Of a DNA stretch of 64,000 nucleotides, positions 1,440 to 56,982 are shown piece by piece. The notes under the pieces are model-generated. The model saw only the letters and a list, made by a program, of their open reading frames with translations, was not told the DNA's origin and did not search any database. The first letter of the stretch is position 1, and each line of letters begins with the position of its first letter. The stretch is taken from positions 326,762 through 390,761 of IMG/VR virus record IMGVR_UViG_3300020429_000529, one strand, 5' to 3'. A program made the translations under genes and the position numbers. Source of the DNA: a virus.

Positions 1440-1657
1440 CACCCACCAAGAGCCGCGAGTTGCGGCGGAGATTGAAGCAATGATGTCAGTAAGGTCCAAA
1501 GCCAGAACCAACGTCAACCAGCGCAAGCAGGCATGGCGTCAGTTCGCGTATGCGGGTTTTGCAGCCCGTAATGCGAAGGGGCTTGGACCTCGCGGACCTC
1601 AACAGGAGATCGAGAACATCTGATCTTCTGAAGACAGGTCAAGCAGAGAGGATTCCA

Positions 1658-1686
1658 AGCCCCGAGCAGAAGCTCGGGGTTTTTTC
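1658..1686 (+). terminator. rho-independent terminator
   Basis: gccccgagcagaagctcgggg hairpin followed by TTTTTT. Confidence 0.7.
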
Positions 1687-1696
1687 GTGCAAATAT

Positions 1697-1769
1697 GGGG
1701 CTATAGCGTAACTGGTAACGCGTCTCGATGGCATTGAGAAGAGTAGGGGTTCGAGTCCCCTTAGCTCCA
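1697..1769 (+). tRNA. tRNA-Ala(GGC)
   Basis: Full cloverleaf, G3:U70 pair, anticodon loop aUGGCAu, T-loop TTCGAGT. Confidence 0.85.
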
Positions 1770-1812
1770 CTTATGAGAGTTCGCAAGTTCTCTCAAGAAC
1801 GTAGTTCGCTTC

Positions 1813-1836
1813 GTTCGACTTCTTTGACAAGTGAAT
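1813..1836 (+). promoter_or_regulatory. recurrent motif TTCGACTTCTTTGACAAGTGAATA (contains TTGACA), copy 1
   Basis: 23/24 identical to 11544-11567; related CTCTTTGAC(A/T)A motifs at 5246, 26157 and 34750; 10 nt upstream of tRNA-Phe. Confidence 0.4.
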
Positions 1837-1845
1837 ACCTGCTAT

Positions 1846-1918
1846 TGGGTCAGTAGCTCAGTTGGTAGAGCAGTGGATTGAAGATCCGCGTGTCGTTGGT
1901 TCGAATCCGACCTGGCCC
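1846..1918 (+). tRNA. tRNA-Phe(GAA)
   Basis: gggtcag/ctggccc acceptor, tagctcagttggtagagca D-arm, anticodon loop uUGAAGa. Confidence 0.85.
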
Positions 1919-1925
1919 ACTTTAT

Positions 1926-1998
1926 AGCCTCGTAGCATAATTGGTAATGCAGGAGCCTCTGAAGCTCTGTATTGGGGGTTCGAGTCCCTCCGAGGCTG
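1926..1998 (+). tRNA. tRNA-Gln(CUG)
   Basis: agcctcg/cgaggct acceptor, anticodon stem ggagc/gctct, loop cUCUGaa. Confidence 0.8.
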
Positions 1999-2091
1999 TT
2001 TGATCTGGCGTGGGAATAGACGACCGAAACAGGTAATGCTGAACTGGTCACCCTTTGCGTATGGGCGAGTAGTCCTGAGAGTCAGATCGTT

Positions 2092-2165
2092 ATCCCGGTA
2101 GCTCAACTGGACAGAGTACCTGACTACGAATCAGGCGGTTGGGGGTTCGAATCCCTCTCGGGATG
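2092..2165 (+). tRNA. tRNA-Arg(ACG)
   Basis: atcccgg/tcgggat acceptor, anticodon stem cctga/tcagg, loop cUACGaa, T-loop TTCGAAT. Confidence 0.8.
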
Positions 2166-2203
2166 TTAGGCAAAGGTCGAAGGTTCGATTCCTTCTGCAT
2201 CAT
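2166..2203 (+). other. tRNA 3' half fragment (anticodon-loop UUA + 3' anticodon stem ggcaa + T-arm + 3' acceptor), matches the 5' half at 2239-2272
   Basis: ggcaa pairs with ttgcc of the downstream 5' half; T-arm gaaggTTCGATTccttc; acceptor tgcatca. Confidence 0.45.
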
Positions 2204-2238
2204 CACGGATCCTGAGACTGTTCGCGCAAACAGTCAAG

Positions 2239-2272
2239 AGATGTATAGCTCAATGGTGGAGCATTGCCATTT
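2239..2272 (+). other. tRNA 5' half fragment (acceptor agatgta, D-arm, 5' anticodon stem ttgcc, loop AUUU)
   Basis: tagctcaatggtggagca D-arm; ends exactly where tRNA-Ala(CGC) begins. Confidence 0.45.
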
Positions 2273-2345
2273 GGGGACGCATGTTCCAACGGCGGCGAAC
2301 TTCCCTCGCAAGGAAGTTGGGAGGGTTCGATTCCCTTCGTCTCCA
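2273..2345 (+). tRNA. tRNA-Ala(CGC)
   Basis: ggggacg/cgtctcc acceptor with G3:U70, anticodon stem cttcc/ggaag with loop cUCGCaa, T-arm gagggTTCGATTccctt; weak G-U rich D-stem. Confidence 0.6.
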
Positions 2346-2351
2346 CTTTAC

Positions 2352-2424
2352 GGGGTCGTAGCTCAACTGGTAGAGCATCTGCTTTGCAAGCAGAGGGTTA
2401 GGGGTTCGAGTCCCCTCGATTCCA
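2352..2424 (+). tRNA. tRNA-Ala(UGC)
   Basis: ggggtcg/cgattcc acceptor with G3:U70, anticodon stem tctgc/gcaga, loop uUUGCaa. Confidence 0.8.
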
Positions 2425-2546
2425 CTTACGGTATTGCCAACACGCCATTGCAGGTCTTTCCATGGACTGCAAGAAAGAGGGCTGGTTCCCTGAACCAATA
2501 CAGTCATTTGTTGAAGGCCTCTTCAAATGACTCAATCAGGATTTTC

Positions 2547-2626
2547 GGGTAGGCTATCCTGGGAGAGACAAGCTGGCTGTAAACCAGTGGCATTTTGCTG
2601 AGCAGGTTCGAATCCTGTCCTACCCA
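2547..2626 (+). tRNA. tRNA-Tyr(GUA), class II with long variable arm
   Basis: gggtagg/cctaccc acceptor, anticodon arm gctgg-CUGUAAA-ccagt (loop identical to E. coli Tyr), T-arm gcaggTTCGAATcctgt; D-arm unusual. Confidence 0.6.
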
Positions 2627-2637
2627 CTTTCTTTGTT

Positions 2638-2722
2638 AGGCGATAATGGGCAGTAGGTTTGCCCCGAGGGGAGTCATGACCCCAGTGTCAAAACGAAACA
2701 GGTTCGATTCCTGTATTGCCTG
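2638..2722 (+). tRNA. tRNA-like gene, 85 nt, anticodon arm not resolvable (gggg-AGUCAUGA-cccc)
   Basis: aggcgat/attgcct acceptor, gggc/gccc D-stem, acaggTTCGATTcctgt T-arm. Confidence 0.4.
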
Positions 2723-2726
2723 CCTT

Positions 2727-2811
2727 GGGAGATGATCTTGCCGGGTGACTGTAAATCACTTGACTTGTATATGGCAAGTGGCGTCAAGGGGTTCGATTCC
2801 TCCATCTCTCA
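2727..2811 (+). tRNA. tRNA-Tyr(GUA)-like with a shortened D region (possible pseudogene)
   Basis: gggagat/atctctc acceptor, ggtga-CUGUAAA-tcact anticodon arm, long variable hairpin, T-arm aggggTTCGATTcctcc. Confidence 0.45.
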
Positions 2812-3110
2812 TTCGTTTGTTTCAGGAGGGGATGCAATGCTTGAGTTCAAGAAAACAGCAGAATGCTCCCTCAATCAGGAAGGCATCAATCAGGTCAAAC
2901 AACTCAGCACCGATATGATGCTGGGCAATGTAGTCGAACGAATCGTTCGTATCGGATCGCATGACTACAACCTGAAGAGGGAAGGAAACAAAGTCGTCGT
3001 CTATCGTATGAAGATGACTCTCGAACAGAACGACCGTAATGTTCATGGCATGAACAGGAGAAAGTAATGACTGCTCTACGAAAACACAAACCGACCTGCA
3101 AGACAACCTT

Positions 3111-3194
3111 GGGTCGGTGACTGAGAGGCCGAAAGTATCCGCCTTTTAAGCGGGCAGCGAAAGCTCATCGCGGGTTCGAATCCTGCCCGGCCCA
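3111..3194 (+). tRNA. class II-like tRNA with anticodon UUU; variable arm carries a GCGAAAGC hairpin
   Basis: gggtcgg/ccggccc acceptor, 3-bp D-stem with 11-nt loop, anticodon arm tccgc-CUUUUAA-gcggg, variable cagcgaaagctcatc, T-arm gcgggTTCGAATcctgc. Confidence 0.5.
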
Positions 3195-3201
3195 CTTCAC
3201 T

Positions 3202-3274
3202 GGGGGCGTAGCTCAGTTGGTAGAGCATCGGACTTTTAATCCGAGGCGCGCAGGTTCGAGTCCTGTCGCCCTCA
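3202..3274 (+). tRNA. tRNA-Lys(UUU)
   Basis: gggggcg/cgccctc acceptor, anticodon arm tcgga-CUUUUAA-tccga, canonical class I structure. Confidence 0.85.
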
Positions 3275-3278
3275 TTTA

Positions 3279-3351
3279 GGAACGATGGTGTAGTTGGTCT
3301 GCACGCTTGTCTGAAGAACAAGAGGTCACGGCTCGAAACCGTGTCGTTCCA
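3279..3351 (+). tRNA. tRNA-Phe(GAA), atypical T-loop CTCGAAA
   Basis: ggaacga/tcgttcc acceptor, anticodon arm cttgt-CUGAAGA-acaag. Confidence 0.7.
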
Positions 3352-3358
3352 TTTTCAT

Positions 3359-3430
3359 ACCTCGGTAGCTCAATTGGCAGAGCAGCAGACTCTTAATCTG
3401 TGGGTTGTGGGTTCGACTCCCTCCCGGGGT
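3359..3430 (+). tRNA. tRNA-Lys(CUU)
   Basis: acctcgg/ccggggt acceptor, tagctcaattggcagagca D-arm, anticodon arm gcaga-CUCUUAA-tctgt. Confidence 0.8.
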
Positions 3431-3437
3431 ACTTTGA

Positions 3438-3509
3438 CGGGTCCGAAGCATAGGAGGAGATGCACCTGGCTCTTAACCAGGAGAAGAGGGTTCGAATCCC
3501 TACGGACTC
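3438..3509 (+). tRNA. tRNA-Lys(CUU), second copy
   Basis: gggtccg/cggactc acceptor, anticodon arm cctgg-CUCUUAA-ccagg, T-loop TTCGAAT. Confidence 0.75.
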
Positions 3510-3600
3510 ATTTGAAACAGGTCGAAAGCAATCAGTTAACAAGTTCAAATCCTGTATTCCCCACTTCAACAACTCTTGGGGAATTGCCTATTGGAGGCAC
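3510..3600 (+). other. degenerate tRNA-like region (T-arm-like acaagTTCAAATcctgt + attcccc upstream of a GGGGAAT acceptor-like 5' piece)
   Basis: The pieces resemble tRNA parts in the wrong order; no complete cloverleaf found. Confidence 0.25.
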
Positions 3601-3628
3601 CTGAAAGCACCAACATACCTGTTTTGTT

Positions 3629-3702
3629 TCCTCAGTAGCTCAGTTGGTAGTAGCGAATGGCTGTTAACCATTAGGTCGCTGGTTCGAGCCCAGCCTGAGG
3701 AG
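3629..3702 (+). tRNA. tRNA-Asn(GUU)
   Basis: tcctcag/ctgagga acceptor, anticodon arm aatgg-CUGUUAA-ccatt, T-arm gctggTTCGAGCccagc. Confidence 0.85.
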
Positions 3703-3832
3703 TTTAGAGAACGAGTCGAAGAGGCTTCGGTTATCACTTTGATTTTGATTCAAAATGCCCAAAGCGCCTGCCTGTAAAGCAGGAAATGCTGGGGGTAAAA
3801 ACACCGATCTTCACCCCATATTCGTTCTTGTT

Positions 3833-3920
3833 TCTGAGGTAGCCGAGTGGTAGCAGGCGTCTGACTGTTAATCAGAAGGGAGTCACATCCCCGTCGTTGG
3901 TTCGAATCCAACCCTCAGAG
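3833..3920 (+). tRNA. Ser-like class II tRNA body with anticodon GUU (Asn codons)
   Basis: tctgagg/cctcaga acceptor, Ser-type D-arm gcc-gagtggtagca-ggc, anticodon arm tctga-CUGUUAA-tcaga, 19-nt variable arm, T-arm gttggTTCGAATccaac. Confidence 0.6.
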
Positions 3921-4042
3921 TTTTTGATCTACGAAAGGTCTTTCGTTCCGAGTATCTCACAAAATACGGAGGGCCTTGTCTTGAATGTCTGAATCCGTGA
4001 CTTGTGCTTCGCATCCGAAGCGCTAACGGAGAGGACAGAGAC

Positions 4043-5122
4043 ATGAAGAAGGTCACGGTCAAGCCAACGCTTGTAGCATCTGCTGGATACGCAAAACCAG
4101 TAAACGTTGGTCAGAATGACGATATATTGAGCGAAAAAGAACAGCAGATCAAGAATCTTGCTGATCGACTCATCGCCGCAGTTCCTTGCGCTTCATCGAA
4201 CTGGGCAGAGGACAACCCTCACCATATGGGCTACGGACTCAAGTCCGAGGGCGGCTGGATGAGGTTCATGCAAGGTCACATCTGGCGCTGCGTTAGCGAG
4301 CTTGGATACAGACGAGTCTTCTTCCATCTTCCGTTCGGCAAAACAACGGGTCAGTCTCCTTACGAAGTTCAGAAGCGAGCTTTTGAAGCTGAGTATGGGC
4401 AGCCTTACTCAGAATGGACAGACGAGCAGAAAGCCGTTCTCGAAGACATGGACCTCAAGAGATGGCATATGAGTATCGATCATATGCACGACCTCGAACG
4501 AACAGGTAACGAGTTTATCGCAACTGGCTTCTATGAGGCGCTCGATTGGATTCATGAACAGGATCCGGGCGTTGAGATCATCTGCTACATCGGTTCGTAT
4601 GATTCGGAAGACAAGGGTCGCATCGACAACGGCGAGTACGGCGCAGTCTTCTTTGATTGGTGGAGATCAGTTTATCCGTTGATCGATCGAGACTGGGTTT
4701 CGATCGTCTACGATGCTGCGGTCGGTAAAGAACCTGACCACATCAACGCAAGGCTTGCTCAGCTAACGCAAGACGCAAAGAACCGTCAGCCTGGACGCTT
4801 TGTAGGGGTTGAGGCTCGCATCCAGAAGGGTCGTCCTTGGCCGAACGATTTGGGTATGACATGCGTTGCTTGGGCGGCGACATGGAGACGACAGGCTCAT
4901 TCGGGGAACATTCCTCGGGAGTTCTTGACTGTTCCGCCGATCGTTGTTTACGACGGGCACGCAAAGAGTCAGGTCAACAACAGCTACAATGGCGACTGGT
5001 TCGCATACATGGCTGAAGACTTGGCGCAAAACTGTCAGATCGCTCCTTCTCCGCTTGGAGGCGAGTTTGCGACCCTGACAACGACAGAGGTAGCCGCCAG
5101 ATTGTTAGATCTGGTTTCGTAG
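4043..5122 (+). CDS. hypothetical protein, paralog family A (with 19743, 38401, 39861)
   Basis: GGAGAGGA RBS before the ATG at 4043; shares RVFFHLPFG / IICYIGSYD-type motifs with three other ORFs in the window. Confidence 0.65.
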   Translation: MKKVTVKPTLVASAGYAKPVNVGQNDDILSEKEQQIKNLADRLIAAVPCASSNWAEDNPHHMGYGLKSEGGWMRFMQGHIWRCVSELGYRRVFFHLPFGKTTGQSPYEVQKRAFEAEYGQPYSEWTDEQKAVLEDMDLKRWHMSIDHMHDLERTGNEFIATGFYEALDWIHEQDPGVEIICYIGSYDSEDKGRIDNGEYGAVFFDWWRSVYPLIDRDWVSIVYDAAVGKEPDHINARLAQLTQDAKNRQPGRFVGVEARIQKGRPWPNDLGMTCVAWAATWRRQAHSGNIPREFLTVPPIVVYDGHAKSQVNNSYNGDWFAYMAEDLAQNCQIAPSPLGGEFATLTTTEVAARLLDLVS

Positions 5123-5713: not shown

Positions 5714-5815
5714 GGTTACAACTTGCAGAGGTCTGGTACATCTGCGGCGCGTCGCGATTCCGTAAGCTCAGCGCGAGGGTCATTCGGCCCCTCAAGTCGG
5801 TTCGAATCCGAGACG
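5714..5815 (+). other. elongated tRNA-like element (acceptor ggttaca/cgtaacc, T-arm tcggTTCGAATccga) with about 30 extra nt
   Basis: Ends pair but the internal cloverleaf is not resolvable; possible intron-containing or decayed tRNA. Confidence 0.3.
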
Positions 5816-5861
5816 TAACCAAGCAGTATCGAGGGACGCTTCGATGTCTGCTTTTTGATTG

Positions 5862-5983
5862 CCCTGTGGCGGAATGGTAGACGCACGGAAGACATTCCGA
5901 TTCGCCGTTCGAGTCGGCAAAGTAGGCGGATGCGCTGAAATCAAAGGTAGAATGTAGGTTCGAATCCTACCAGGGCAACTTGT
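5862..5983 (+). other. elongated tRNA-like element with Leu-type D-arm (tggcggaatggtagacgc) and two T-arm-like hairpins
   Basis: Acceptor tgccctg/cagggca pairs across 122 nt; internal gccgTTCGAGTcggc and gtaggTTCGAATcctac. Confidence 0.3.
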
Positions 5984-6150: not shown

Positions 6151-6287
6151 GTCAACGTGGTGTAACTGGCAACACACTTAAACGCCTTTCGCCATACCAT
6201 ACCTGTCTCGGGATCCCCGACAGGTCGAAGGATGGAAGGTTAACCTCTTGCAAAGGAGAGCTTCAGGTTCGAATCCTGACGTTGGCA
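6151..6287 (+). tRNA. insert-containing tRNA-like gene (137 nt); anticodon arm atypical (ctct-UUGCAAAGG-agag)
   Basis: Acceptor gtcaacg/cgttggc, D-arm same as the tRNA at 6075, then an insert of about 65 nt sharing aacgcctttcgccataccata...gtcgaaggatggaaggttaac with 6291-6421, T-arm tcaggTTCGAATcctga. Confidence 0.45.
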
Positions 6288-6290
6288 TTT

Positions 6291-6421
6291 CTCAGCGTGG
6301 TGTAATGGTAGCACAGTAACAAACGCCTTTCGCCATACCATATTTCGTAAGAAGTCGAAGGATGGAAGGTTAACATTCCTCTGTAAAAGGAAAGGTTCGG
6401 GTTCGAATCCCGACGCTGGGT
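6291..6421 (+). tRNA. insert-containing tRNA-Tyr(GUA)-like gene (131 nt)
   Basis: Acceptor ctcagcg/cgctggg, D-arm, about 55-nt insert paralogous to the one in 6151-6287, anticodon arm ttcct-CUGUAAA-aggaa, T-arm tcgggTTCGAATcccga. Confidence 0.5.
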
Positions 6422-6425
6422 TTTT

Positions 6426-6537
6426 GGTGCCGCACGAGGAATGATCCCAGAAGCGCGCGATCCCAAGATGAAGGAGAGGCCTCTCTTGATTCGAGGGTGA
6501 TCATGGGATGGAGGTTCGATGCCTCCCGGCGCTGTTT
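6426..6537 (+). other. elongated tRNA-like element (acceptor ggtgccg/cggcgct, T-arm ggaggTTCGATGcctcc; possible anticodon loop UUGAUUC)
   Basis: 112 nt with an internal palindrome gagaggcctctc; structure only partly resolvable. Confidence 0.3.
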
Positions 6538-7554: not shown

Positions 7555-7932
7555 GTGAAGATTTGCAGAGGAACCAACAGAATCGTCTTTCTTGTTTCTC
7601 GCTGGGCGATCAAAATCCCAGCGTTCATTCCTCATGGCTGGTCTTTGGGAATCTATGGCATTCTGGCATCGCTGCGAGAAGCCGGATCCTGGGAGGCCGT
7701 CTGCTGCGAAGGCGCTGCAAATGAGGACTGCAAGCCAATGCTTGTTCCTGTCCGTTGGAGCTTTGCGGGATTGATACTGGTTCAGCCCCGAGGTACAGAG
7801 GTATCAACGCAGGAATGGAATGATTGGGATGGCTTCGATAGAATGACAAAGTTCTGCGGAGACATCAAGCAGGAGAACACTGTTTGGTTGAACGGCAAAA
7901 TACGAGTATGCGACTATGGATCGGTCGCATAA
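7555..7932 (+). CDS. hypothetical protein with a protein-kinase-like catalytic-loop/DFG segment (GTG start)
   Basis: CGDIKQENTVWLNGKIRVCDYG resembles HGDLKPENILL...IKIxDFG; start chosen at the first in-frame GTG after the upstream stop. Confidence 0.35.
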   Translation: MKICRGTNRIVFLVSRWAIKIPAFIPHGWSLGIYGILASLREAGSWEAVCCEGAANEDCKPMLVPVRWSFAGLILVQPRGTEVSTQEWNDWDGFDRMTKFCGDIKQENTVWLNGKIRVCDYGSVA

Positions 7933-7935
7933 CTT

Positions 7936-8017
7936 GCGGGCGTAGTCTAACGGTAAGGCACTGGCCTTCGAAGCCAGCGGTGAAAATCCATTGGGGGTTC
8001 GAATCCCTCCGCCCGTG
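7936..8017 (+). tRNA. tRNA-Arg(UCG) with an enlarged 15-nt variable region
   Basis: gcgggcg/cgcccgt acceptor, anticodon arm ctggc-CUUCGAA-gccag, T-arm gggggTTCGAATccctc. Confidence 0.65.
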
Positions 8018-8031
8018 TTTAGGAGAATCAG

Positions 8032-8604
8032 ATGGCAACCATTGAAGACGGACGCTACATCGAAGCCCCTCAAACACTGCCCATTCGGGCGCTGATTGCT
8101 GACCATATCAGGACGGTCTTCCTGGCTGGCGGCATATCGGGCACCGAAGACTGGCAGATACATGCCGCTCAACGCTTCATCGATGAAAGCCGTCTGACGG
8201 TCATCAATCCTCGTCGTCCTGGCGGCTTGTCCAAGACAGGAGATGAAGCTGCTCGACAGATCCAATGGGAGTTTGAGTCTCTGCGGCATTCGCAGTTCGT
8301 TCTTTTCTGGTTCCCTCCTGAAACTGTCTGCCCCATCGCTCTCTTTGAGTTGGGGACATTCCTCGGAAGAGGTCGAAACTACCGCTTCGAGGGGAAGAGA
8401 CCGATCGACGGAGGAGAGGGATACAACGGCACTCCGTGGCCGTACATCTATGTCGGATGCCATCCAGACTACTCTCGTCGTTTCGATCTCGAACAGCAGA
8501 TTCCGCTGTACGATGAAAGAGTTACTCTCAGGTACGATCTTGATGAGGTCATCGATGCGATCATCGAGGACAGCAAGATTCTCGCCGAGAGACGAGATTC
8601 GTAA
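8032..8604 (+). CDS. nucleoside 2-deoxyribosyltransferase-like protein (tentative)
   Basis: AGGAGA RBS; VFLAGGISGTEDWQ...NPRRPGG pattern. Confidence 0.55.
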   Translation: MATIEDGRYIEAPQTLPIRALIADHIRTVFLAGGISGTEDWQIHAAQRFIDESRLTVINPRRPGGLSKTGDEAARQIQWEFESLRHSQFVLFWFPPETVCPIALFELGTFLGRGRNYRFEGKRPIDGGEGYNGTPWPYIYVGCHPDYSRRFDLEQQIPLYDERVTLRYDLDEVIDAIIEDSKILAERRDS

Positions 8605-8866: not shown

Positions 8867-8957
8867 GCCCCCGTAGCTCAATTGGAAGAGCGGCCGGCTT
8901 CTATCCGGTTTAGACCAACTAAGGTCGAGGTTGAGGGTTCGAGTCCTTCCGGGGGTG
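8867..8957 (+). tRNA. tRNA-Arg(UCU)-like with class I D-arm and a 23-nt variable arm
   Basis: gcccccg/cgggggt acceptor, anticodon arm gccgg-CUUCUAU-ccggt, variable hairpin gacc...ggtc, T-arm gagggTTCGAGTccttc. Confidence 0.55.
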
Positions 8958-8976
8958 CTTTGAAAGGAGAGTCGCT

Positions 8977-11154: not shown

Positions 11155-11179
11155 GCATTTTCGAGATTTTCTTCCGATG

Positions 11180-11210
11180 AGGGAGGAAGTGACGCCGTAA
11201 GGCGGTATAC
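11180..11210 (+). repeat. conserved 31-nt element, copy 2 (GGGAGGAAGTGACGCCGTAAGGCGGTATACT)
   Basis: 30/31 identical to 1409-1439; about 210 nt upstream of the terminator at 11389. Confidence 0.6.
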
Positions 11211-11388
11211 TGAGGAACCGCAAGGGCGGAGATTGTACGAACCATGAAGACCATGACCTCAACAACCGGGCATATGACAACGACCCAAAGCGGCGGAAGC
11301 TGCGGCGGTACGTCGTCTTGCGCCATGGCTGGGTCTGGCCCTTCTGGTCCGTAATACTGCACGGACAAGCACGGAAGAGGATACCAGA

Positions 11389-11418
11389 GCCCCAGCCTAC
11401 GAAGGTTGGGGCTTTTTT
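11389..11418 (+). terminator. rho-independent terminator
   Basis: gccccagcctacgaaggttggggc hairpin followed by TTTTTT. Confidence 0.7.
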
Positions 11419-11434
11419 CATTGACAGACATTTT

Positions 11435-11518
11435 GAGGGTGAAGTCTATTCGGCATGACGCCTGCCTTCCAAGCAGGAGAGCGAAAGCTCATTGCGGGTT
11501 CGAATCCCGTCACCCTCT
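11435..11518 (+). tRNA. class II-like tRNA with anticodon UCC; variable arm carries a GCGAAAGC hairpin
   Basis: gagggtg/caccctc acceptor, 3-bp D-stem, anticodon arm cctgc-CUUCCAA-gcagg, variable agagcgaaagctcatt, T-arm gcgggTTCGAATcccgt. Confidence 0.55.
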
Positions 11519-11543: not shown

Positions 11544-11567
11544 TTCGACCTCTTTGACAAGTGAATA
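11544..11567 (+). promoter_or_regulatory. recurrent motif TTCGACCTCTTTGACAAGTGAATA, copy 2
   Basis: 23/24 identical to 1813-1836; immediately upstream of the RNase P RNA-like element. Confidence 0.4.
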
Positions 11568-11593
11568 GAGACGATTTGAAAGACTTCTCTTAA

Positions 11594-12338: not shown

Positions 12339-12614
12339 ATGGTTAAGAGACGATTTGGCGTTGATTTCTACAGCGACGGAGGTGCGTTGACCCTCTCTCC
12401 TGGAGAGATCGGCGAGAACGAGTCCGGTTGGACCATTGTTGGAGAAGTTCATGAAGACTACTACGAATGGGTGAACTACTTTGAAGCCTCTCATCCTGAC
12501 TTCGGTTGGGTAAAGGGAGACTTCGAGGATGAGGTGAAAGCTTCATCCAAGAAGGCGTTCGACCATTTCTGGAAGCATCATGAACCTTCGGCTTGGGACT
12601 ATCAGGACATCTAA
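12339..12614 (+). CDS. hypothetical protein
   Basis: Internal ATG with a strong AAGGAGA RBS within ORF 12144-12614. Confidence 0.5.
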   Translation: MVKRRFGVDFYSDGGALTLSPGEIGENESGWTIVGEVHEDYYEWVNYFEASHPDFGWVKGDFEDEVKASSKKAFDHFWKHHEPSAWDYQDI

Positions 12615-12641
12615 CCAGCAGCCGCCTTCGGGCGGCCCTAT

Positions 12642-12712
12642 GCTCCCATGTTGTAGTGGTAGCCTCCTTTCTTGGTACGAAAGTGGCGTCGGTTCGATTC
12701 CGACTGGGAGCT
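12642..12712 (+). tRNA. tRNA-Thr(GGU)
   Basis: gctccca/tgggagc acceptor, anticodon arm ctttc-UUGGUAC-gaaag, T-arm gtcggTTCGATTccgac. Confidence 0.85.
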
Positions 12713-12729
12713 TTGTCGATAAGAGAAGC

Positions 12730-13101
12730 ATGGAACTCAACACAAACATCAAGAGAGGCAAAGTCTGGGGCAATACTTCTTGTCTCTTCGCAAAGAACAA
12801 TGTCGAACTGCATCGGATCGAGGCAAAGAAGGGCGGCTTCTGCTCCAAGCATTGTCACAGATCTAAGTTCAATATGTTCTTTGTCGAAAACGGCGCTCTC
12901 AAGATCACGATTTACCGTCCTGATGCTGGTCAAATCCTTGAAGATGAGACTATTATCAAGACTGGCGAATCAACGCTGGTCGAACCTGGTTTGTATCACA
13001 AGTTTGAGGCTCTTGAAGATTCGGTTGCCCTTGAGGTTTACTGGGTCGAGCTTGAACACGATGATATAGAGAGGGAGTCGGTTGGCGGCATGAAGCAGTA
13101 A
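12730..13101 (+). CDS. cupin domain protein
   Basis: First ATG after the tRNA; HRIEAKKGGFCSKHCH...LVEPGLYHKFEA cupin-like beta-barrel motifs. Confidence 0.55.
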   Translation: MELNTNIKRGKVWGNTSCLFAKNNVELHRIEAKKGGFCSKHCHRSKFNMFFVENGALKITIYRPDAGQILEDETIIKTGESTLVEPGLYHKFEALEDSVALEVYWVELEHDDIERESVGGMKQ

Positions 13102-17375: not shown

Positions 17376-17712
17376 TTCCACACTCGACTTCGAGATAGCA
17401 AATGTCTGGATCTCTCTTCATGAGGTGGTCGGCGACATTGCTTACGAAGAAAACGCCGATAAGAGAAAGAACCTGTTCGACAAGTATCTTTACCTGGATC
17501 GGCGTCTGCATCTGATGATGTGTGCCCTTAAGGACGGATGGGAAAAGTTCTCGTTCGAGAGGATGCACGAAGAGCGAAAGAACCTTTGCGCCGCAGACTA
17601 CTGGCGGTTCAAGGAGCTTTGGGATTTGCCGATGCCCGAAATCTTCAAGAGACATGAAGAGAAGCGGGTTGCGGAGATAGAGAAGAGAAGGAAGGGCGGC
17701 GAACATTGGTGA
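17362..17712 (+). CDS. hypothetical protein
   Basis: ATG...TGA overlap with the upstream gene; C-terminus overlaps tRNA-Ser by about 23 nt. Confidence 0.4.
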   Translation: MGRIDSTLDFEIANVWISLHEVVGDIAYEENADKRKNLFDKYLYLDRRLHLMMCALKDGWEKFSFERMHEERKNLCAADYWRFKELWDLPMPEIFKRHEEKRVAEIEKRRKGGEHW

Positions 17713-17780
17713 GTCGCATCCGCTTGGAAAGCGGACGGTCCTCGCGAGAGGGCCTGAGGGTTCGATTCCCTTCCCTTCCG
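17690..17780 (+). tRNA. tRNA-Ser(GGA)
   Basis: ggaaggg/cccttcc acceptor, anticodon arm tccgc-UUGGAAA-gcgga, 20-nt variable arm, T-arm gagggTTCGATTccctt. Confidence 0.8.
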
Positions 17781-17796
17781 CTTTGATAGAGATTCC

Positions 17797-18129
17797 ATGC
17801 CCAAGCAAACTTACATAACTCCAAAGTGTTGTAAGGAGGCAGACAACAACGCAGTTGTTCTCTCGGGCAGGGAATGGGAGTCAGACGAAGACGCCGTAAG
17901 CATCAAGCCGAAATGGGTTGTCCCTGTTTTCAAGGGAGAGTATTACGGGTTGATGGAGGTAAGCTTCTGTCCGTTTTGCGGCAAAGACCTGCCTGATGTA
18001 GAACTTGATCCGACAATTGATTCGAGCAAGATCTACAAGTTTGACGATGACTACTGCGGGAACTGCGGCGAGCGAAACAGGACATGCTCTTGTTTGCAAC
18101 CCGAGTTTCGATGGAAACCGATTGGATAG
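17797..18129 (+). CDS. Cys-rich (zinc-binding?) hypothetical protein
   Basis: CPFCG...CGNCG...CSC motifs; the stop codon is the tRNA's U8-A9-G10. Confidence 0.5.
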   Translation: MPKQTYITPKCCKEADNNAVVLSGREWESDEDAVSIKPKWVVPVFKGEYYGLMEVSFCPFCGKDLPDVELDPTIDSSKIYKFDDDYCGNCGERNRTCSCLQPEFRWKPIG

Positions 18130-18217
18130 GAGGCAACTGATGGTTCGTTGCATCTGCCTGCTAAGCAGACGTGCCCTGTAAACCAGGGCACCGAGGGTTC
18201 GAGTCCCTTCCTATCCG
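18124..18217 (+). tRNA. tRNA-Ser(GCU)
   Basis: ggatagg/cctatcc acceptor, anticodon arm tctgc-CUGCUAA-gcaga, long variable arm gtgccctgtaaaccagggcac. Confidence 0.8.
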
Positions 18218-18333
18218 CTTTGATTTACCTGTTGGGCATATCGCTTGGATTCTTGGCGTTAGCTGTCGTGATTTACGCCATCGTTAGCGCCATGTCTGGC
18301 CGATATGCAAGCAGCGTACCAGAGGGAGAAGTC

Positions 18334-18534
18334 ATGTCAGAAGATCAGAACACTCCGAAAGAGTTCGAACTGTACCGAGACAACGATGGAGAGTTCCGTT
18401 GGAGGCTTCGAGCCCGAAACGGTCGAGTCATCGCTTCCTCGGGAGAAGGCTACAAGAACAAGGCTGACGCCGAACATGCGATCGGCCTGGTCAAGAACGC
18501 TTCAGCAGCAACAGTAGTAGAGGATCTGACATGA
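18334..18534 (+). CDS. DUF1508/YegP-like protein
   Basis: GAGGGAGAAG RBS; FELYRDNDGEFRWRLRARNGRVIASSGEGYKNKADAEHAI matches the YegP repeat; an upstream in-frame TM-like segment would require a non-ATG start. Confidence 0.55.
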   Translation: MSEDQNTPKEFELYRDNDGEFRWRLRARNGRVIASSGEGYKNKADAEHAIGLVKNASAATVVEDLT

Positions 18535-21860: not shown

Positions 21861-21945
21861 GCCCGTATGGCCGAGTGGCGAAGGCGGCGGATTGCAAATC
21901 CGCTGAGGCTTGACCTCCACGTTGGTTCGAATCCAACTGCGGGCT
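21861..21945 (+). tRNA. Ser-like class II tRNA body with anticodon GCA (Cys codons)
   Basis: gcccgta/tgcgggc acceptor, Ser-type D-arm ggccgagtggcgaaggc, anticodon arm gcgga-UUGCAAA-tccgc, 17-nt variable arm, T-arm gttggTTCGAATccaac. Confidence 0.6.
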
Positions 21946-21981
21946 TTGAAGACTACGAGGGTTCGAATCCCTCCCCGGTCT
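21946..21981 (+). other. tRNA 3' fragment (T-arm gagggTTCGAATccctc + acceptor cccggtc)
   Basis: Pairs with the 5' fragment at 21082; no anticodon arm upstream. Confidence 0.45.
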
Positions 21982-21988
21982 TTTGAAT

Positions 21989-22340: not shown

Positions 22341-22615
22341 ACAGCGTCATCTACGAGACCTCTGAGGGCTACAGGACGCACGTTGGCATTCAGGACGGCA
22401 CAGAGTATGGCGGTCCCTTTCCGACGCTCACAGAGGCTCAGGACGACTGCTGGAAGACAGAGAAGATCATGAACGGAAACGACATCGACGTTGATGCGAT
22501 TCCGATTATGCGCGGGTCTCTTGGAGATAAAGGCCCCGACAGAATCCCGGGAGAACTGTCGGACGCCAAACGAGAGGGTTCGAATCCCTTGACCCGCTTT
22601 ATGAGACCGATTTGA
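22337..22615 (+). CDS. hypothetical protein (3' end contains a tRNA-like T-arm/acceptor sequence)
   Basis: ATGA overlap; the C-terminal EGSNPLTRF is coded by gagggTTCGAATcccttgacccgc, which pairs with gcgggtc at 22512. Confidence 0.3.
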   Translation: MNSVIYETSEGYRTHVGIQDGTEYGGPFPTLTEAQDDCWKTEKIMNGNDIDVDAIPIMRGSLGDKGPDRIPGELSDAKREGSNPLTRFMRPI

Positions 22616-30796: not shown

Positions 30797-33544
30797 ATGC
30801 AAGGTCACGATGACAGCGGAAGGGGCGGAACTCGCGGGGATCTACTGATCCCTCCGGGCTCGTATGCCTATTTCCAGTCAACGCAGAACGGTTCGATTTC
30901 GACGAAAGTCGGACCAACCAATGTCCCCTCGTCGGGTAACGAAAACCCGATCAAGTTCGATCCTCAATCGAGGAGATTCACTTCCTGTACGCCAGACCAG
31001 GCGATGCAGACAACAATTCGCGCAGGCGAGAATGATTACATCATCCTCGAAAATCCCTGTCTTCAGGGCGGCGAACTCGTCTTCCCCGGCACCAACAAAG
31101 ACAAGCTGCCCGAAAACGGCTTGGAGATGGGACGGCGAGTTGTTGTTCATGGACCTGTCTCTTTCGCGCTGTGGCCGGGCCAAGTCGCAACGGTTGTCGA
31201 GGGCCACGCTCTTCGGACCAACGAATACCTCGAACTGCGGGTCTACGACGCCGAAGCTGCGAAGAAGAACTGGTCCGAGGCCTCGGTAGTCGCTGCCTCG
31301 GCAACGACCGATACGGGAGGACAGGGCGGAGGACAGGGCGGTTCAGGCGGGGAGGATGACCAAAACGCTGGCTCTGCGGACGCTACTTCTGCTGACAAGG
31401 CTGGCGCTGCGGTGGTAAGCGGAGAAGTTCCTGACCTTAGAGTCGGTCAGCGGCTCATCATCAAGGGCACGGATGTCAGCTTCTACATGCCTCCGAGCGG
31501 TATCCAGGTTGTTTCCAGCGATGGAGACCGAACCTATGTTCGCAGCGCTGTCTCTCTCGAACTGCTCGAATACACGATCCTTGTTGATGAGTCGGGCGAC
31601 AAGCGATTCGTCCAAGGCCCTGCCGTTGTCTTCCCCGAGCCCACGGAGACTTTCTTCACGAAGAACGACACTCGGAAGTTCCGAGCGATCGAGCTTCAGG
31701 AGCAGGCTGGTCTTCATCTGAAGGCGCTCAAGGATTTCACCGACGAGGGAGGCAAGCAGCGCAAGGCTGGCGATGAATACTTCGTCACGGGCAAGGAACG
31801 ACCCATCTACTACCCGAGAGAAGAGGAAGCGATCGTTCCTTACGCCGAGGGCGAGCGAGTCCACTATGCCGTTGCGGTTCCCAAGGGAGAGGGCCGCTAT
31901 GTCATGGAGAAGGACTCGGGCGAGATCGATACTCGTACCGGACCCGAGATGCTTCTCTGCGACCCGACCGATGAAGTCATCGTTCGCAGGATCCTGACCG
32001 ATCGACAGTGCGAAGATTGGTATCCCGGCAACGATGCCGCTCGACGCTATAACGCCAGTCTGCGATCGATTCAGGAAGCTGCTGGTTCTGCTCGGAGCGA
32101 TGTTGTTTCCGATTCGGTCACTCGGAGAGCGGCAACTAAGGGCGTCAGTTCGTTGAGGTCTATCGCTCGTCGGGGCGAGGGCCTTGAGTCGCTGGCGTAT
32201 GCCGCTGCGGGCGAAGAATCCTTTGGGGCTGCGGAAGAGGCGGGTTCTGCCGTTCTCGAAGAGTTCGAGCGTAGGGGGAACTTCACTCAGCCCAAGAGTA
32301 TTACGCTCGACACCAAGTTCGAGGGCGTGCCGACGATCGAGCTTTGGACCGGCTACGCCGTTATGGTCGTCAACAAGAGCGGCGACCGTCGCATCGAGGT
32401 TGGTCCGACCACTCTTCTTCTCGACTACGACGAATCGTTGGAGATCATGGAGCTTTCGACCGGCAAGCCCAAGTCTACCGACACTCTGCTGCGAACCGTT
32501 TACCTCCGAGTTCAGAACAACAAGGTCTCGGATGTCATCGAAGTCGAGACAAGCGATCATGTTCGAGTCAAGGTCAAGGTTTCGTTCCGAGTCAACTTCG
32601 CTGAGAGCAACCCGAACAACGCTGAAGACAAGACTGACTACAAGACCCGTTGGTTCGCTACCGAGAACTATGTCAAGCTGCTCTGCGACCATGTTCGTTC
32701 TGTTCTCAAGGGCGAGGTCAAGAAGCACTCGATCTCGGAGTTCTACGCCACGGCGACGGCGACGATTCGAGATATCCTTCTCGGCAAGAGAGCGGAAGGA
32801 ACGGGTCGTCCTGGTATGTTCTTCGACGAGAACGGCATGCACGTCGTTGATGTCGAAGTTCTCGCCACCGACATCGAAGATCGAGAGATCAGCGCTTTAC
32901 TGATCGGCGCTCAGCGAGAAGCTGTCGAATCCAACATCAAGGTCGCTGCTGCCAAGCGTCAGCTTGAAACGACGACCAGCATGGAGGATATGGCTCGTCA
33001 AGAGGCCACGGCTCGCGAAGCGACGAAGAAGCATGCTCATGATCTGCAACTCGCTGAGTTCCAGCGAGATCTCACTCGTTCGCTCGATCGGATCAGGTCC
33101 GAACTCGAAACCCATCAATCGAACAAGGAAGTCATCGAGGCTCGCATCGCCAACGGCGACATCGAGGCTCAGGCGGAGCTTGTTCGCGAGAAGGCTCGAC
33201 ACGACCAGTTGATCGAGCAGAAGAAGGCGGAGCAGGAAATCGAACTCGCCAAGCTCAAGGCCGAGGTCGATGCTGTCAAGGAACGCTTCGGCGCTCTCGA
33301 CGACAGCAACCTGCCCGAGATGTTGGCGGTTCTCAGCAGAGAGGACATGCTGACTCGTATCGCTACGGCCTCGTCTTGGCAGACTGTCATCGGCGGTCAG
33401 AGCCTCGACGACGCTCTCGGCGGTATCTTCGGACCTGACTCGCCTGTCGCCAAGATGCTCGCCACGCTCAAGGCTGGCTCCTCGATCGCTCCTGCGGTCA
33501 TCGGCAGCAGTCGAACGGCGGCAAGGGCTGGCAGCGAGGACTGA
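30797..33544 (+). CDS. major vault protein (MVP) homolog
   Basis: 915 aa. The N-terminal LLIPPGSYAYFQSTQNGSISTKVGPTNVP matches the MVP repeat VIRIPPYHYIHVLDQN...VEVGPKTYI; there are several further MVP-type repeats; an SPFH/shoulder-like segment RTVYLRVQNNKVSDVIEVETSDHVRVKVKVSFRVNF; and a long C-terminal coiled coil like the cap helix. Confidence 0.8.
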   Translation: MQGHDDSGRGGTRGDLLIPPGSYAYFQSTQNGSISTKVGPTNVPSSGNENPIKFDPQSRRFTSCTPDQAMQTTIRAGENDYIILENPCLQGGELVFPGTNKDKLPENGLEMGRRVVVHGPVSFALWPGQVATVVEGHALRTNEYLELRVYDAEAAKKNWSEASVVAASATTDTGGQGGGQGGSGGEDDQNAGSADATSADKAGAAVVSGEVPDLRVGQRLIIKGTDVSFYMPPSGIQVVSSDGDRTYVRSAVSLELLEYTILVDESGDKRFVQGPAVVFPEPTETFFTKNDTRKFRAIELQEQAGLHLKALKDFTDEGGKQRKAGDEYFVTGKERPIYYPREEEAIVPYAEGERVHYAVAVPKGEGRYVMEKDSGEIDTRTGPEMLLCDPTDEVIVRRILTDRQCEDWYPGNDAARRYNASLRSIQEAAGSARSDVVSDSVTRRAATKGVSSLRSIARRGEGLESLAYAAAGEESFGAAEEAGSAVLEEFERRGNFTQPKSITLDTKFEGVPTIELWTGYAVMVVNKSGDRRIEVGPTTLLLDYDESLEIMELSTGKPKSTDTLLRTVYLRVQNNKVSDVIEVETSDHVRVKVKVSFRVNFAESNPNNAEDKTDYKTRWFATENYVKLLCDHVRSVLKGEVKKHSISEFYATATATIRDILLGKRAEGTGRPGMFFDENGMHVVDVEVLATDIEDREISALLIGAQREAVESNIKVAAAKRQLETTTSMEDMARQEATAREATKKHAHDLQLAEFQRDLTRSLDRIRSELETHQSNKEVIEARIANGDIEAQAELVREKARHDQLIEQKKAEQEIELAKLKAEVDAVKERFGALDDSNLPEMLAVLSREDMLTRIATASSWQTVIGGQSLDDALGGIFGPDSPVAKMLATLKAGSSIAPAVIGSSRTAARAGSED

Positions 33545-34767: not shown

Positions 34768-35118
34768 GGGGGTGATATGGAATCGACCGAATGATGTAGG
34801 TTGATGATCGCGAGTCGGGGATGCATGCTCAGGCCCCGTTATCAAGGTATGCACAAATTAGTTGCCAACAGCAACACCCTCCGCATGGCTGCTTAATCAG
34901 CCTGCTCGCAACCCGAAGACACCGATATTCGGGAAGCGAAAGACCATCGGGTTAGGCATCGTCTTCAACGCCTGAGGATTCGATGACCGAAACTAAAAGG
35001 GCTGCTCCGAAGGTCATGCTGTCGCTGGCAGGACTGAGGCTAAGATAAATCAGCGAATACACTCGTAGAGGTCTCTGCTGACCCATTCGACACCGGGGTT
35101 CGAGTCCCCGCACCTCCA
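34768..35118 (+). ncRNA. ssrA: tmRNA (ssrA), tag reading frame ANSNTLRMAA*
   Basis: The 5' end GGGGGUGAUAUGGAAUCGACCG resembles the tmRNA consensus GGGGCUGAUUCUGGAUUCGACGGG. The 3' end ccgggguucgaguccccgcaccucca pairs with the 5' acceptor with G3:U70. The internal ORF gcc aac agc aac acc ctc cgc atg gct gct taa gives the tag. Confidence 0.8.
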
Positions 35119-35126
35119 CTTCAGAA

Positions 35127-52535: not shown

Positions 52536-52826
52536 ATGAGGGAAACGATTGTTGTCAGCGGCGAACCTGATGCAGAGCAGAAGCGCTGTTACGATTGTTT
52601 CTACATGCGAGGGGCCTGTTCTTGGTGGTGCAAAAACGAAGAAGCCATCAAGTTCAGAGGAACCAGAATCCCTGGAGTGAGGGAATGCAAGTTCTGGAAA
52701 CCGGCTCGAAAAGTGTCTGATCTCAGCATGGGCGAACGGTTAGCCTTCCATCTTGACGTACTTGGGCTTGGTTTTGTGCCACTGACGATCGAAGCGTCGG
52801 AGCAAACAGAGACAACGCCTCAATAG
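52536..52826 (+). CDS. Cys-rich hypothetical protein
   Basis: 96 aa with CYDCFYMRGACSWWC; its TAG stop is the U8-A9-G10 of the suppressor tRNA. Confidence 0.4.
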   Translation: MRETIVVSGEPDAEQKRCYDCFYMRGACSWWCKNEEAIKFRGTRIPGVRECKFWKPARKVSDLSMGERLAFHLDVLGLGFVPLTIEASEQTETTPQ

Positions 52827-52888
52827 CTCAATTGGCAGAGCAGCGGGCTCTAACCCCGCGGTTGGGGGTTCAAGTCCCCCTTGAGGCA
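52817..52888 (+). tRNA. amber suppressor tRNA (anticodon CUA, reads UAG)
   Basis: gcctcaa/ttgaggc acceptor, D-arm tagctcaattggcagagca (same as tRNA-Lys(CUU) at 3359), anticodon arm gcggg-CUCUAAC-cccgc, T-arm gggggTTCAAGTccccc. Confidence 0.8.
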
Positions 52889-56323: not shown

Positions 56324-56916
56324 TGGCGGTCTTGACTGAACAACGGCTCAAGGAGCTTCGTCTGGTTTCTAATCGAGTTGTACGAGCGAAGGACTTTGCT
56401 CGTACAGCCCATCAGGGGCAGACAAGAGATGACGGCGCGGAATACTTCTCTCATCCGTCGAGAGTTGTTGATCGAGTTCGAGGTTACTCGGGCGACGAGA
56501 ACACCATCTGCGCCGCATGGTTGCATGATACGATCGAGGATTGCGAGGGCGTTACTTCGGAGATGCTGCAGGATCTCTTCGGTTCTCAGGTTACGAGCAT
56601 CGTTGAAGAACTGACGCTCCCTGAGATTCCTTCTAAGATCAGTCCTCCTCATCGGTGGCAATACAAGACGGATCTGCTCGTCAAAAAGGCAGGCACGATG
56701 TCTAATGAGGCGAAGCTGGTCAAGATTTGCGACCGCATTGACAACTTGAATTCTGCGATGACGGATTGGAAGCCCCGTCGTCTTGTCCGTTACGCTATTC
56801 AGGGCTGCAAGATGCTGGAAGCTATGCGCCCTCTCGATCCGATGCATCAGCAAGCTGCAAACGACCTGCTCTTTCTGATCGCTCAGATCTTGATCGAAAA
56901 CCAACAGTCCTCGTAG
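56323..56916 (+). CDS. HD-domain phosphohydrolase (RelA/SpoT-type HD)
   Basis: ARTAHQGQTRDDGAEYFSHPSRVV...AAWLHDTIED motifs; its TAG stop is the tRNA's U8-A9-G10. Confidence 0.7.
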   Translation: MAVLTEQRLKELRLVSNRVVRAKDFARTAHQGQTRDDGAEYFSHPSRVVDRVRGYSGDENTICAAWLHDTIEDCEGVTSEMLQDLFGSQVTSIVEELTLPEIPSKISPPHRWQYKTDLLVKKAGTMSNEAKLVKICDRIDNLNSAMTDWKPRRLVRYAIQGCKMLEAMRPLDPMHQQAANDLLFLIAQILIENQQSS

Positions 56917-56982
56917 CTCAGTATGGCCAGAGCCGCCGACTCTAAATCGGTGTGAGCGCGGGTTCGAGTCCCGCCGAGGACG
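56907..56982 (+). tRNA. amber suppressor tRNA (anticodon CUA), second copy with a different body
   Basis: gtcctcg/cgaggac acceptor, D-stem gctc/gagc, anticodon arm gccga-CUCUAAA-tcggt, T-arm gcgggTTCGAGTcccgc. Confidence 0.75.

Follow-up and report, generated by a model that had tools for sequence, protein, structure and literature searches.

A permuted tRNA element, probably a relic, between two tRNA genes

The stretch of DNA analysed here, catalogued as viral and referred to as the window, comprises 64,000 nucleotides (positions 326,762 to 390,761 of the IMG/VR record IMGVR_UViG_3300020429_000529), and its sequence sits on a ~498.6-kb Tara Oceans metagenome contig. It harbours a very large array of transfer RNA (tRNA) genes, all on one strand, in which ARAGORN recognises 46 tRNA genes and one transfer-messenger RNA (tmRNA); Rfam (RF00005, gathering threshold) confirms 42 tRNAs. 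The interval between tRNA-Arg(ACG) and tRNA-Ala(CGC) is occupied by a 107-nt element (2166-2272) in which the 3' half of a further tRNA (2166-2203) lies upstream of its 5' half (2239-2272). Here we report that the two halves are cognate parts of one tRNA in permuted order and that the arrangement is real and rare. We propose that the element is probably a recent recombination relic, in other words a tRNA pseudogene in permuted order without a selected function.

The original prediction for this locus described a candidate circularly permuted or split tRNA-Lys(UUU), and all of its statements on the sequence were confirmed when the parts were checked against the letters of the sequence (Table 1) and the joined 72-mer, the 5' half followed by the 3' half, was submitted to ARAGORN. 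The joined sequence is called as tRNA-Lys(ttt), and the native order elicits no call. The two anticodon-stem strands are perfectly complementary, as had been claimed, with five out of five Watson-Crick pairs, and the acceptor strands pair at six of seven positions through five Watson-Crick pairs and one G-U pair alongside an A1.A72 mismatch. The breakpoints do coincide with the Rfam boundaries of the two neighbouring tRNAs. Across the 2272|2166 junction the joined order reads ...GGAGCATTGCCATTT|TTAGGCAAAGGTCG... and its 3' end, up to T2203, reads ...TGCATCAT; the composite anticodon loop, AUUUUUA, is 7 nt long and includes U33, and in the 5' half the stem strand TTGCC is preceded by A26. The minimum-free-energy fold of the 72-mer is a cloverleaf (-21.2 kcal/mol), and the designed permuted fold of the 107-nt RNA (-26.3 kcal/mol) lies no more than 2.8 kcal/mol off the minimum free energy of that RNA.

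In the native order UUA and AUUU are unpaired, and the element is flanked by the acceptor ends of tRNA-Arg and tRNA-Ala, the latter acquiring a G3:U70 pair from its start at G2273. The 35-nt spacer between the halves is too short for an open reading frame (ORF), and its similarity to the trailer after tRNA-Ala(GGC) at 1771-1800 is weak and non-diagnostic and was set aside. A promoter and terminator scan revealed nothing decisive near the element.

Table 1. Parts of the permuted element and the two adjoining tRNA genes, in window coordinates.
Feature	Coordinates	Strand	Remarks
tRNA-Arg(ACG), upstream neighbour	2092-2165	+	Rfam RF00005, 60.2 bits; ARAGORN 2091-2166; discriminator G2165 abuts the element
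UUA	2166-2168	+	Composite anticodon-loop positions 36-38, or (UU) the generic TT trailer of tRNA-Arg
GGCAA, anticodon-stem 3' strand	2169-2173	+	Perfect complement of TTGCC at 2264-2268
AGGTC, variable loop	2174-2178	+	Placed by the ARAGORN cloverleaf of the joined sequence
T-arm, GAAGG-TTCGATT-CCTTC	2179-2195	+	Canonical G53 T54 T55 C56 A58 C61; aligns to the T-arm columns of YrlA
Acceptor 3' strand TGCATCA and discriminator T2203	2196-2203	+	Followed by CACGG, no TT trailer
Spacer, 35 nt	2204-2238	+	Closes the acceptor stem; 7-bp hairpin GACTGTT-CGCGCA-AACAGTC at 2216-2235 predicted by folding
Acceptor 5' strand AGATGTA	2239-2245	+	6/7 pairing with 2196-2202; A1.A72 mismatch, T6.G67 wobble
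D-arm, GCTC-AATGGTG-GAGC	2248-2262	+	Follows T8 A9 (2246-2247); aligns to the D-arm columns of YrlA
TTGCC, anticodon-stem 5' strand	2264-2268	+	
AUUU	2269-2272	+	Composite anticodon-loop positions 32-35, or the T-rich leader of tRNA-Ala
tRNA-Ala(CGC), downstream neighbour	2273-2345	+	Rfam RF00005, 32.9 bits; G2273 is +1

The arrangement is real and rare

Halves taken from different tRNAs of the window do not match as well as these do. Among 1980 ordered pairs of different tRNAs from the window, 82 show 6/7 acceptor pairing and 68 show a 5/5 anticodon stem, and not a single pair combines both. Three related genomes widen this comparison: the sister genome L017, a 502-kb contig with a neighbouring protein 98% identical to that of the window and DNA blocks of ~97-99% identity, and the relatives L011 and L018, whose neighbouring proteins are 77% and 69% identical, respectively. 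When every inter-tRNA gap in the window and in these three genomes was circularised, a junction-spanning tRNA arose from this gap only.

An artefact, be it a mis-assembly in the repetitive tRNA array or a chance juxtaposition of parts from two unrelated tRNAs, has practically no chance of accounting for the element. Short repeats such as GGTTCGAATCC are common to tRNA arrays and several short contigs in the collection end within this one. Against this, the 265 nt from 2086 to 2350 are 100% identical across five independently assembled contigs from different Tara samples, so the element is not mis-assembled; neither half is found elsewhere in the window, and pairing of this quality is absent from the 1980 unrelated pairs.

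A simple scanner was run over ten array loci holding ~255 tRNA genes, four cultured phages included, and returned two orphan cognate pairs in the order 3' half, spacer, 5' half, this element being one of them; its two false positives both fall at real tandem junctions. Permuted orphan pairs are hence rare, yet they recur, as would suit a by-product of turnover in the array. The second pair, at 7106-7180 of L021 (IMGVR_UViG_3300020201_000458), belongs to an unrelated phage array, combines a 10-nt spacer with a 7/7 acceptor stem, and lies within tRNA debris, with a foreign T-arm coming after the pair.

The composite departs from local tRNA signatures

The other tRNAs of the window provide a standard against which the composite can be judged; counts for positions 32 and 37 and for the acceptor stem refer to the 45 tRNAs with a three-base anticodon, those for trailers and leaders to the 42 Rfam-defined tRNAs. 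Position 37 is a purine in all 45 (42 A, 3 G) and U in the composite, a residue that had already been flagged as atypical and that proves to be without local parallel. The composite has A32, which recurs in only 1/45, and its 6/7 acceptor stem compares with 7/7 pairing in 44/45. A TT dinucleotide occurs within 3 nt of the discriminator in 42/42 tRNAs, directly after it in 32 and after a single C in 10 (examples of trailers are found at 1770-1773, 2166-2167 and 3511-3513), and five of the 42 carry TTA directly after the discriminator. The TT trailer is a strict signature and presumably a 3'-processing signal, and the array's tRNAs do not encode CCA. The composite's own discriminator, T2203, is followed by CACGG and is thus devoid of a TT trailer. 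Leaders are T-rich to a lesser degree: 31 end in T and four in TTT.

Since the TT trailer is universal here, UU would come after tRNA-Arg regardless of any permuted tRNA, which renders both the UUU anticodon and the exact 7-nt fit insecure. The truly tRNA-derived part may begin only at A2168, and the UUU triplet and the 7-nt loop may owe something to a T-rich spacer. The letters and the length of the loop with U33 and UUU in the original prediction are correct; it is the significance of the exact fit that is weakened. The tRNA-Lys(UUU) label fares similarly, in that it is backed by the ARAGORN call and undermined by the insecure anticodon and by the body of the element, for which the best match among 140 tRNAs reaches ~65% identity for Lys, Arg, Thr and Ala alike. 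Overall similarity is consequently uninformative as to the isoacceptor, since Lys tRNAs resemble the body no more than those for Arg, Thr or Ala do. The anticodon-arm pattern expected of a contiguous parent has three matches in IMG/VR, all of them Ala or Arg tRNAs of unrelated phages, and so the stem is not diagnostic of Lys either. Two tRNA-Lys(UUU) and two tRNA-Lys(CUU) genes (ARAGORN) are situated 0.9-1.3 kb downstream, which removes any decoding need for the element. The evidence does not support a tRNA-Lys gene that works.

The element is absent from a near-identical genome

The alignment of L017 with the window ends at 2125, in the tRNA-Arg anticodon loop, and restarts at 2271. In L017 the tRNA-Arg 3' end (...CGGGATG) is followed by TTTTTGATT and then by the GGGGACG of tRNA-Ala; the Arg-Ala gap measures 9 nt, and this interval holds no trace of either half. 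The tRNA-Ala(CGC) gene itself is 100% identical in the two genomes. The element is a presence/absence polymorphism between near-identical genomes. An ordinary contiguous tRNA-Lys at this site in relatives, which the original prediction had named as the finding that would speak against it, was not seen; L017 simply lacks any element there. The arrays of L011 and L018 are ordered differently and do not contain a match to the element.

The same comparison reveals how mobile the array is. The L017 tRNA-Arg gene is split after U33 by a PDDEXK_5 ORF and a complete replacement tRNA-Arg(ACG), followed by the decayed old 3' remnant, and its Val and Gly tRNA genes are interrupted by HNH-like ORFs, with duplication of the 5' part of the tRNA in each case. 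In the window the alleles of Arg-ACG, Val-GAC and Gly-UCC are free of endonucleases, and whole-tRNA insertions and deletions also separate the two genomes. The array is thus being reshuffled by homing endonucleases that target tRNA genes, and orphan halves regularly result. The three split loci of L017 lie at 7559-8101, 12363-12891 and 17384-18341 (Arg-ACG, Val-GAC and Gly-UCC) and represent one PDDEXK_5 protein and two HNH-like paralogues; tblastn searches of the window with all three endonucleases returned nothing.

Beyond these relatives, an exact-pattern scan of IMG/VR for the 3' half gave no matches, and neither did any of the four scans of Joint Genome Institute (JGI) metagenomes and Genome Taxonomy Database (GTDB) genomes, in which each half served as a pattern. 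Relatives of the neighbouring protein were not found in IMG/VR, and a blastn search of GenBank phages with window 1600-4000 uncovered generic tRNA similarity only and no related genome.

Comparison with known permuted tRNAs

Circularly permuted tRNA genes are reportedly found in Cyanidioschyzon merolae, some green algae and the archaeon Thermofilum pendens, as set out by Soma et al. in 2007 and in later work. Like these genes, the element places the 3' half upstream on the same strand, joins the acceptor strands through a short spacer and would give rise to a cloverleaf, although one that deviates at A32, U37 and A1.A72. In contrast to the element, which has complete tRNAs on either side, the algal and archaeal genes form a terminal bulge-helix-bulge and are circularised by a splicing endonuclease and a ligase; they are moreover conserved and often the sole copy of their isoacceptor, whereas the element is strain-specific, redundant and endowed with U37. 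To our knowledge, known permuted tRNA genes mature via the bulge-helix-bulge splicing endonuclease, and bacteria are without such an enzyme. Direct reading of the flanks, with no dedicated motif search, disclosed neither a bulge-helix-bulge nor an extended terminal helix, and pairing ends at the 5-bp anticodon stem.

Closer in topology is the tRNA-like domain of the bacterial Y RNA YrlA (RF02553), which shares with the element the strand order of stem, T-arm, closed acceptor stem, D-arm and stem (PMC4201824), so that this topology is already known in bacteria and phages. YrlA of M. smegmatis, whose acceptor stem is likewise 7 bp long, is cleaved by RNase P and has CCA added (PMC4201824); by analogy, the 7-bp acceptor stem of the element could be cut by RNase P as well. 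Unlike YrlA, the element has a 37-nt insert at the position of a 2-nt loop, keeps a tRNA-type 5-bp anticodon stem with loop residues, and lacks a Ro-binding terminal stem. YrlA genes lie on the same strand as a Ro60/TROVE gene and within about 4 kb of it (PMC4201824), and no such gene is present within 4 kb of the element. A GNCGAAN0-1G motif (GUCGAAGG, 2176-2183) was considered as evidence for a Y RNA and rejected, because it is formed by the variable loop and T-stem and occurs in 73 copies on the + strand; in a Y RNA it would be expected near the 5' end, within a long Ro-binding stem made by the two ends of the RNA.

An engineered circularly permuted tRNA-Leu(UAG) (PMC10159003) resembles the element in being one transcript with both ends in the anticodon loop and a loop-closed acceptor end. 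It differs in being synthetic and having an acceptor tetraloop in place of the 35-nt spacer, and in ribozyme-made termini (5'-OH and 2',3'-cyclic phosphate), where those of the element would be 5'-phosphate and 3'-OH.

The homing-endonuclease debris of L017 likewise comprises orphan 5' halves and 3' remnants beside intact tRNAs, broken either in the anticodon loop or in the D-arm, and likewise shows presence and absence between near-identical genomes. There the old 5' half comes first, then the endonuclease ORF, the new tRNA and finally the old 3' remnant; the element, by contrast, is permuted and has no endonuclease ORF beside it.

Origin of the element and alternative explanations

We favour a recombination relic over a permuted gene because the element is absent from L017, no homologue was found in the collections searched and three local tRNA signatures are violated. 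The original prediction had allowed for either a permuted gene or a rearrangement relic; the permuted geometry stands, the evidence favours the relic, and the gene reading is not supported. A relic should show presence and absence between near-identical genomes in an array with tRNA-splitting endonuclease ORFs, which is what the comparison with L017 uncovered. The other orphan T-arm/acceptor pieces of the window (for instance 21946-21988), the redundancy with four Lys tRNA genes and the second permuted orphan pair in L021 also speak for a relic. The segment would have originated where two copies of one tRNA gene met in tandem, and would thus run from the 3' half of the first copy through the spacer between the genes to the 5' half of the second, both of its ends falling within anticodon-loop DNA. 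It would then have been captured in the short T-rich spacer between tRNA-Arg(ACG) and tRNA-Ala(CGC), conceivably after cleavage of both copies, excision of the fragment between the cuts and illegitimate joining. All genes of the array share one strand, so the segment is probably transcribed along with them; a 3' cut behind G2165 and an RNase P cut in front of G2273 would then set free a 107-nt RNA able to fold into a tRNA body whose anticodon loop is open and whose acceptor end is closed. We think that this RNA plays no part in decoding and most likely serves no selected function, and that the segment is probably transcribed and trimmed passively.

Several observations sit uneasily with a relic. 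A relic might be expected to lie beside an endonuclease ORF, whole or decayed, or beside a parent tRNA that can still be recognised; no endonuclease ORF or remnant adjoins the element, and no parent gene or tandem pair was recovered from the window, the related loci or the public collections searched. The element body is undamaged, with canonical residues at all tertiary positions (U8, A14, G18 G19, U33, G53 T54 T55 C56 A58 C61), and this implies either a very recent origin or selection. The element occupies the Arg-Ala gap without surplus nucleotides and yields a loop of exactly 7 nt, which a chance insertion would achieve only sometimes. Lastly, the L017 allele may have lost the element by co-conversion as the endonuclease cassette homed into tRNA-Arg.

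A true circularly permuted tRNA-Lys(UUU) gene matured by ligation is, in our estimate, very improbable. In such a gene an RNase Z-type cut after the tRNA-Arg discriminator would leave a 5'-phosphate on U2166 and an RNase P cut before G2273 of tRNA-Ala a 3'-OH on U2272; the folded RNA would hold both ends as a nick in the anticodon loop, an Rnl1/Rnl2-type RNA ligase would seal it, and RNase P together with a 3' nuclease would take out the 35-nt spacer, with CCA being added. RNase P and RNase Z leave 3'-OH and 5'-phosphate, as needed by ATP-dependent RNA ligases, so the predicted ends are suitable for these enzymes, and an RNA_ligase (PF09414) protein is encoded inside the tRNA array of L011. 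The processing sites of the neighbours, furthermore, delimit exactly a 7-nt loop with U33 and UUU, and the joined RNA has a cloverleaf as its minimum-free-energy fold, with the nucleotides for tertiary interactions all intact. Weighing against the gene are its U37 and A32, the A1.A72 mismatch and a discriminator that, set against 42/42 local tRNAs, is without a TT trailer. The gene would also be redundant with the four nearby Lys tRNA genes, it is missing from L017 and was not found in any collection searched, and the UU of its loop is accounted for by the universal trailer. A tblastn search with the L011 RNA ligase detected no homologue in the 64-kb window, and the splicing endonuclease on which the known permuted genes depend is not known from bacteria.

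It is unlikely, though more probable than a permuted gene, that the neighbours' processing releases a tRNA-mimicking non-coding RNA of 107 nt, either a YrlA-like tRNA-like domain or a 'pre-nicked tRNA'. Decoding would not be required of such an RNA; it could act as a decoy for an anticodon nuclease of the host or mimic the product of such an enzyme, or it could be a ligand for an RNA-repair sensor or ligase. The T-arm, closed acceptor stem and D-arm within a terminal stem reproduce the exact order of the YrlA tRNA-like domain, and positions 23-85 of the RF02553 model align to 2171-2266 with 29.7 bits and E = 6e-5 (cmscan of a 161-nt stretch alone). This score has to be read against a gathering score of 69 and against the like but spurious YrlA matches of 22-25 bits produced by tandem tRNA junctions, which the authors of the YrlA study have also remarked upon (PMC4201824). 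The engineered permuted tRNA acts as a nicked tRNA that is sealed by RtcB (PMC10159003), showing that such an RNA can fold and be ligated; this is a precedent for feasibility and not evidence of function here. Support of a contextual kind comes from another permuted tRNA-like element 1.3 kb downstream (3511-3627), which is conserved and has a terminal stem like that of a Y RNA, and from the distant relative L031, which encodes a TROVE/Ro60-family protein beside a syntenic cysteinyl-tRNA synthetase (CysRS) gene. Conversely, the element has no Ro-binding terminal stem, its ends being closed by 5 bp and its flanks being tRNAs, and it is missing from L017. No TROVE gene is seen among the genes called or scanned in the ~70 kb from 6 kb upstream of the window through position 64000, and none of the top 120 TROVE relatives listed (homologues of the L031 protein) is located on the contigs of this genome.

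A broader proposition unites the ligated and the unligated RNA: a natural permuted tRNA of bacterial type, from a phage or megaplasmid, whose ends are set by RNase Z on the tRNA-Arg side and RNase P on the tRNA-Ala side, so that it would emerge pre-nicked in the anticodon loop without recourse to a splicing endonuclease. It would either be sealed by a ligase into a Lys-like tRNA or, unsealed, mimic the product of an anticodon nuclease and thereby blunt a tRNA-targeting defence or engage RNA-repair sensors. We consider this decidedly unlikely.

Other features of the array and its genome

The permuted tRNA-like element at 3511-3627 combines a degenerate T-arm and a D-arm with an acceptor stem that is closed by a loop of 14 nt, and is 94% conserved in L017 (9474-9590). 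Its ends pair as a 9-bp terminal stem with internal loops, and GUCGAAAG is located 11 nt from its 5' end; judging by sequence, its overall architecture is Y-RNA/YrlA-like, and Rfam gives no YrlA match for it. Homologous to its terminal stem is an extra arm of ~60 nt (AAACGCCTTTCGCCATACCATA...GTCGAAGGATGGAAGGTTAAC) that is inserted between the D-arm and an anticodon-like hairpin in tRNA-like genes with an acceptor, D-arm and T-arm at 6151-6291 and 6297-6425 of the window, 11947-12225 of L017 and ~350-480 of L018. These genes are kept in the relative with 69% neighbouring-protein identity and are called neither by ARAGORN nor by Rfam at the gathering score. An Rfam scan of the relatives, including the region beside the L031 TROVE gene, found tRNAs only.

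Other unusual tRNA-like genes occur as well. The one at 1093-1163 has a 6-nt anticodon loop (AATTAA), for which ARAGORN gives a two-base 'tt' anticodon, and is kept in relatives (L017 6528-6598, L011 451-523) down to 77% neighbouring-protein identity. Six tRNAs of 84-92 nt (3111-3195, 3832-3921, 7935-8018, 8867-8958, 11435-11518 and 21861-21945) contain long insertions resembling variable arms, a length that is unusual for their isoacceptors (Lys, Asn, Arg, Gly or Cys). T-arm and acceptor pieces or odd tRNA-like elements without an ARAGORN call occur at 2638-2724, 2729-2813, 5714-5820, 5858-5980, 6430-6535, the 16282 region, 21946-21988 and 22510-22600; most of these retain the TT trailer, and some may be unusual tRNAs and others orphan fragments. 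The orphan fragment at 21946-21988 is flanked by two tRNA-Cys genes. A 33-nt repeat, GGGAGGAAGTGACGCCGYAAGGCGGTATACT, is present at 1407-1439 and 11179-11211, each copy ~200-260 nt upstream of a strong hairpin and T-run immediately before a tRNA (1668-1693 before tRNA-Ala at 1697; ~11385-11419 before tRNA-Gly at 11435), and downstream of these two tRNAs lies a common motif, CTTTGACAAGTGAATA, at ~1819-1834 and ~11556-11571.

The tmRNA (34768-35119) encodes the tag ANSNTLRMAA, and two tRNAs with amber-reading CUA anticodons reside at 52817-52888 and 56907-56982; together these genes hint at stop-codon reassignment or suppression in the genetic element. The window encodes a major vault protein homologue (30797-33544) and a PARP/WGR protein (44620-46278), and the same contig also encodes CysRS and class II aminoacyl-tRNA synthetase fragments, a flotillin, a PAS histidine kinase and a porin. 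Among cellular organisms, Phycisphaerae supply the closest homologues of a neighbouring protein. The TROVE (Ro60/TEP1-family) protein of L031 has 637 amino acids (gene 3035-4948), and with the vault and PARP/WGR proteins of the window it recalls the parts list of the vault particle; no TROVE gene is seen in the ~70 kb covered of the window's own genome.

Implications

The locus documents the speed at which a giant tRNA array is reshuffled by tRNA-targeting homing endonucleases. If the element is a relic, it offers a clean snapshot of the birth of a permuted tRNA gene, with the junction of a tandem pair caught between two processing sites. The literature searched describes no permuted tRNA gene in this kind of system, though bacteria and phages do have a permuted tRNA-like domain in YrlA. 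Were the RNA in use, no permuted tRNA or natural mimic of a nicked tRNA would have preceded it outside eukaryotes and archaea; its maturation would proceed without a splicing endonuclease, and it would bear directly on the contest between the tRNA arrays of phages and the anticodon nucleases of their hosts.

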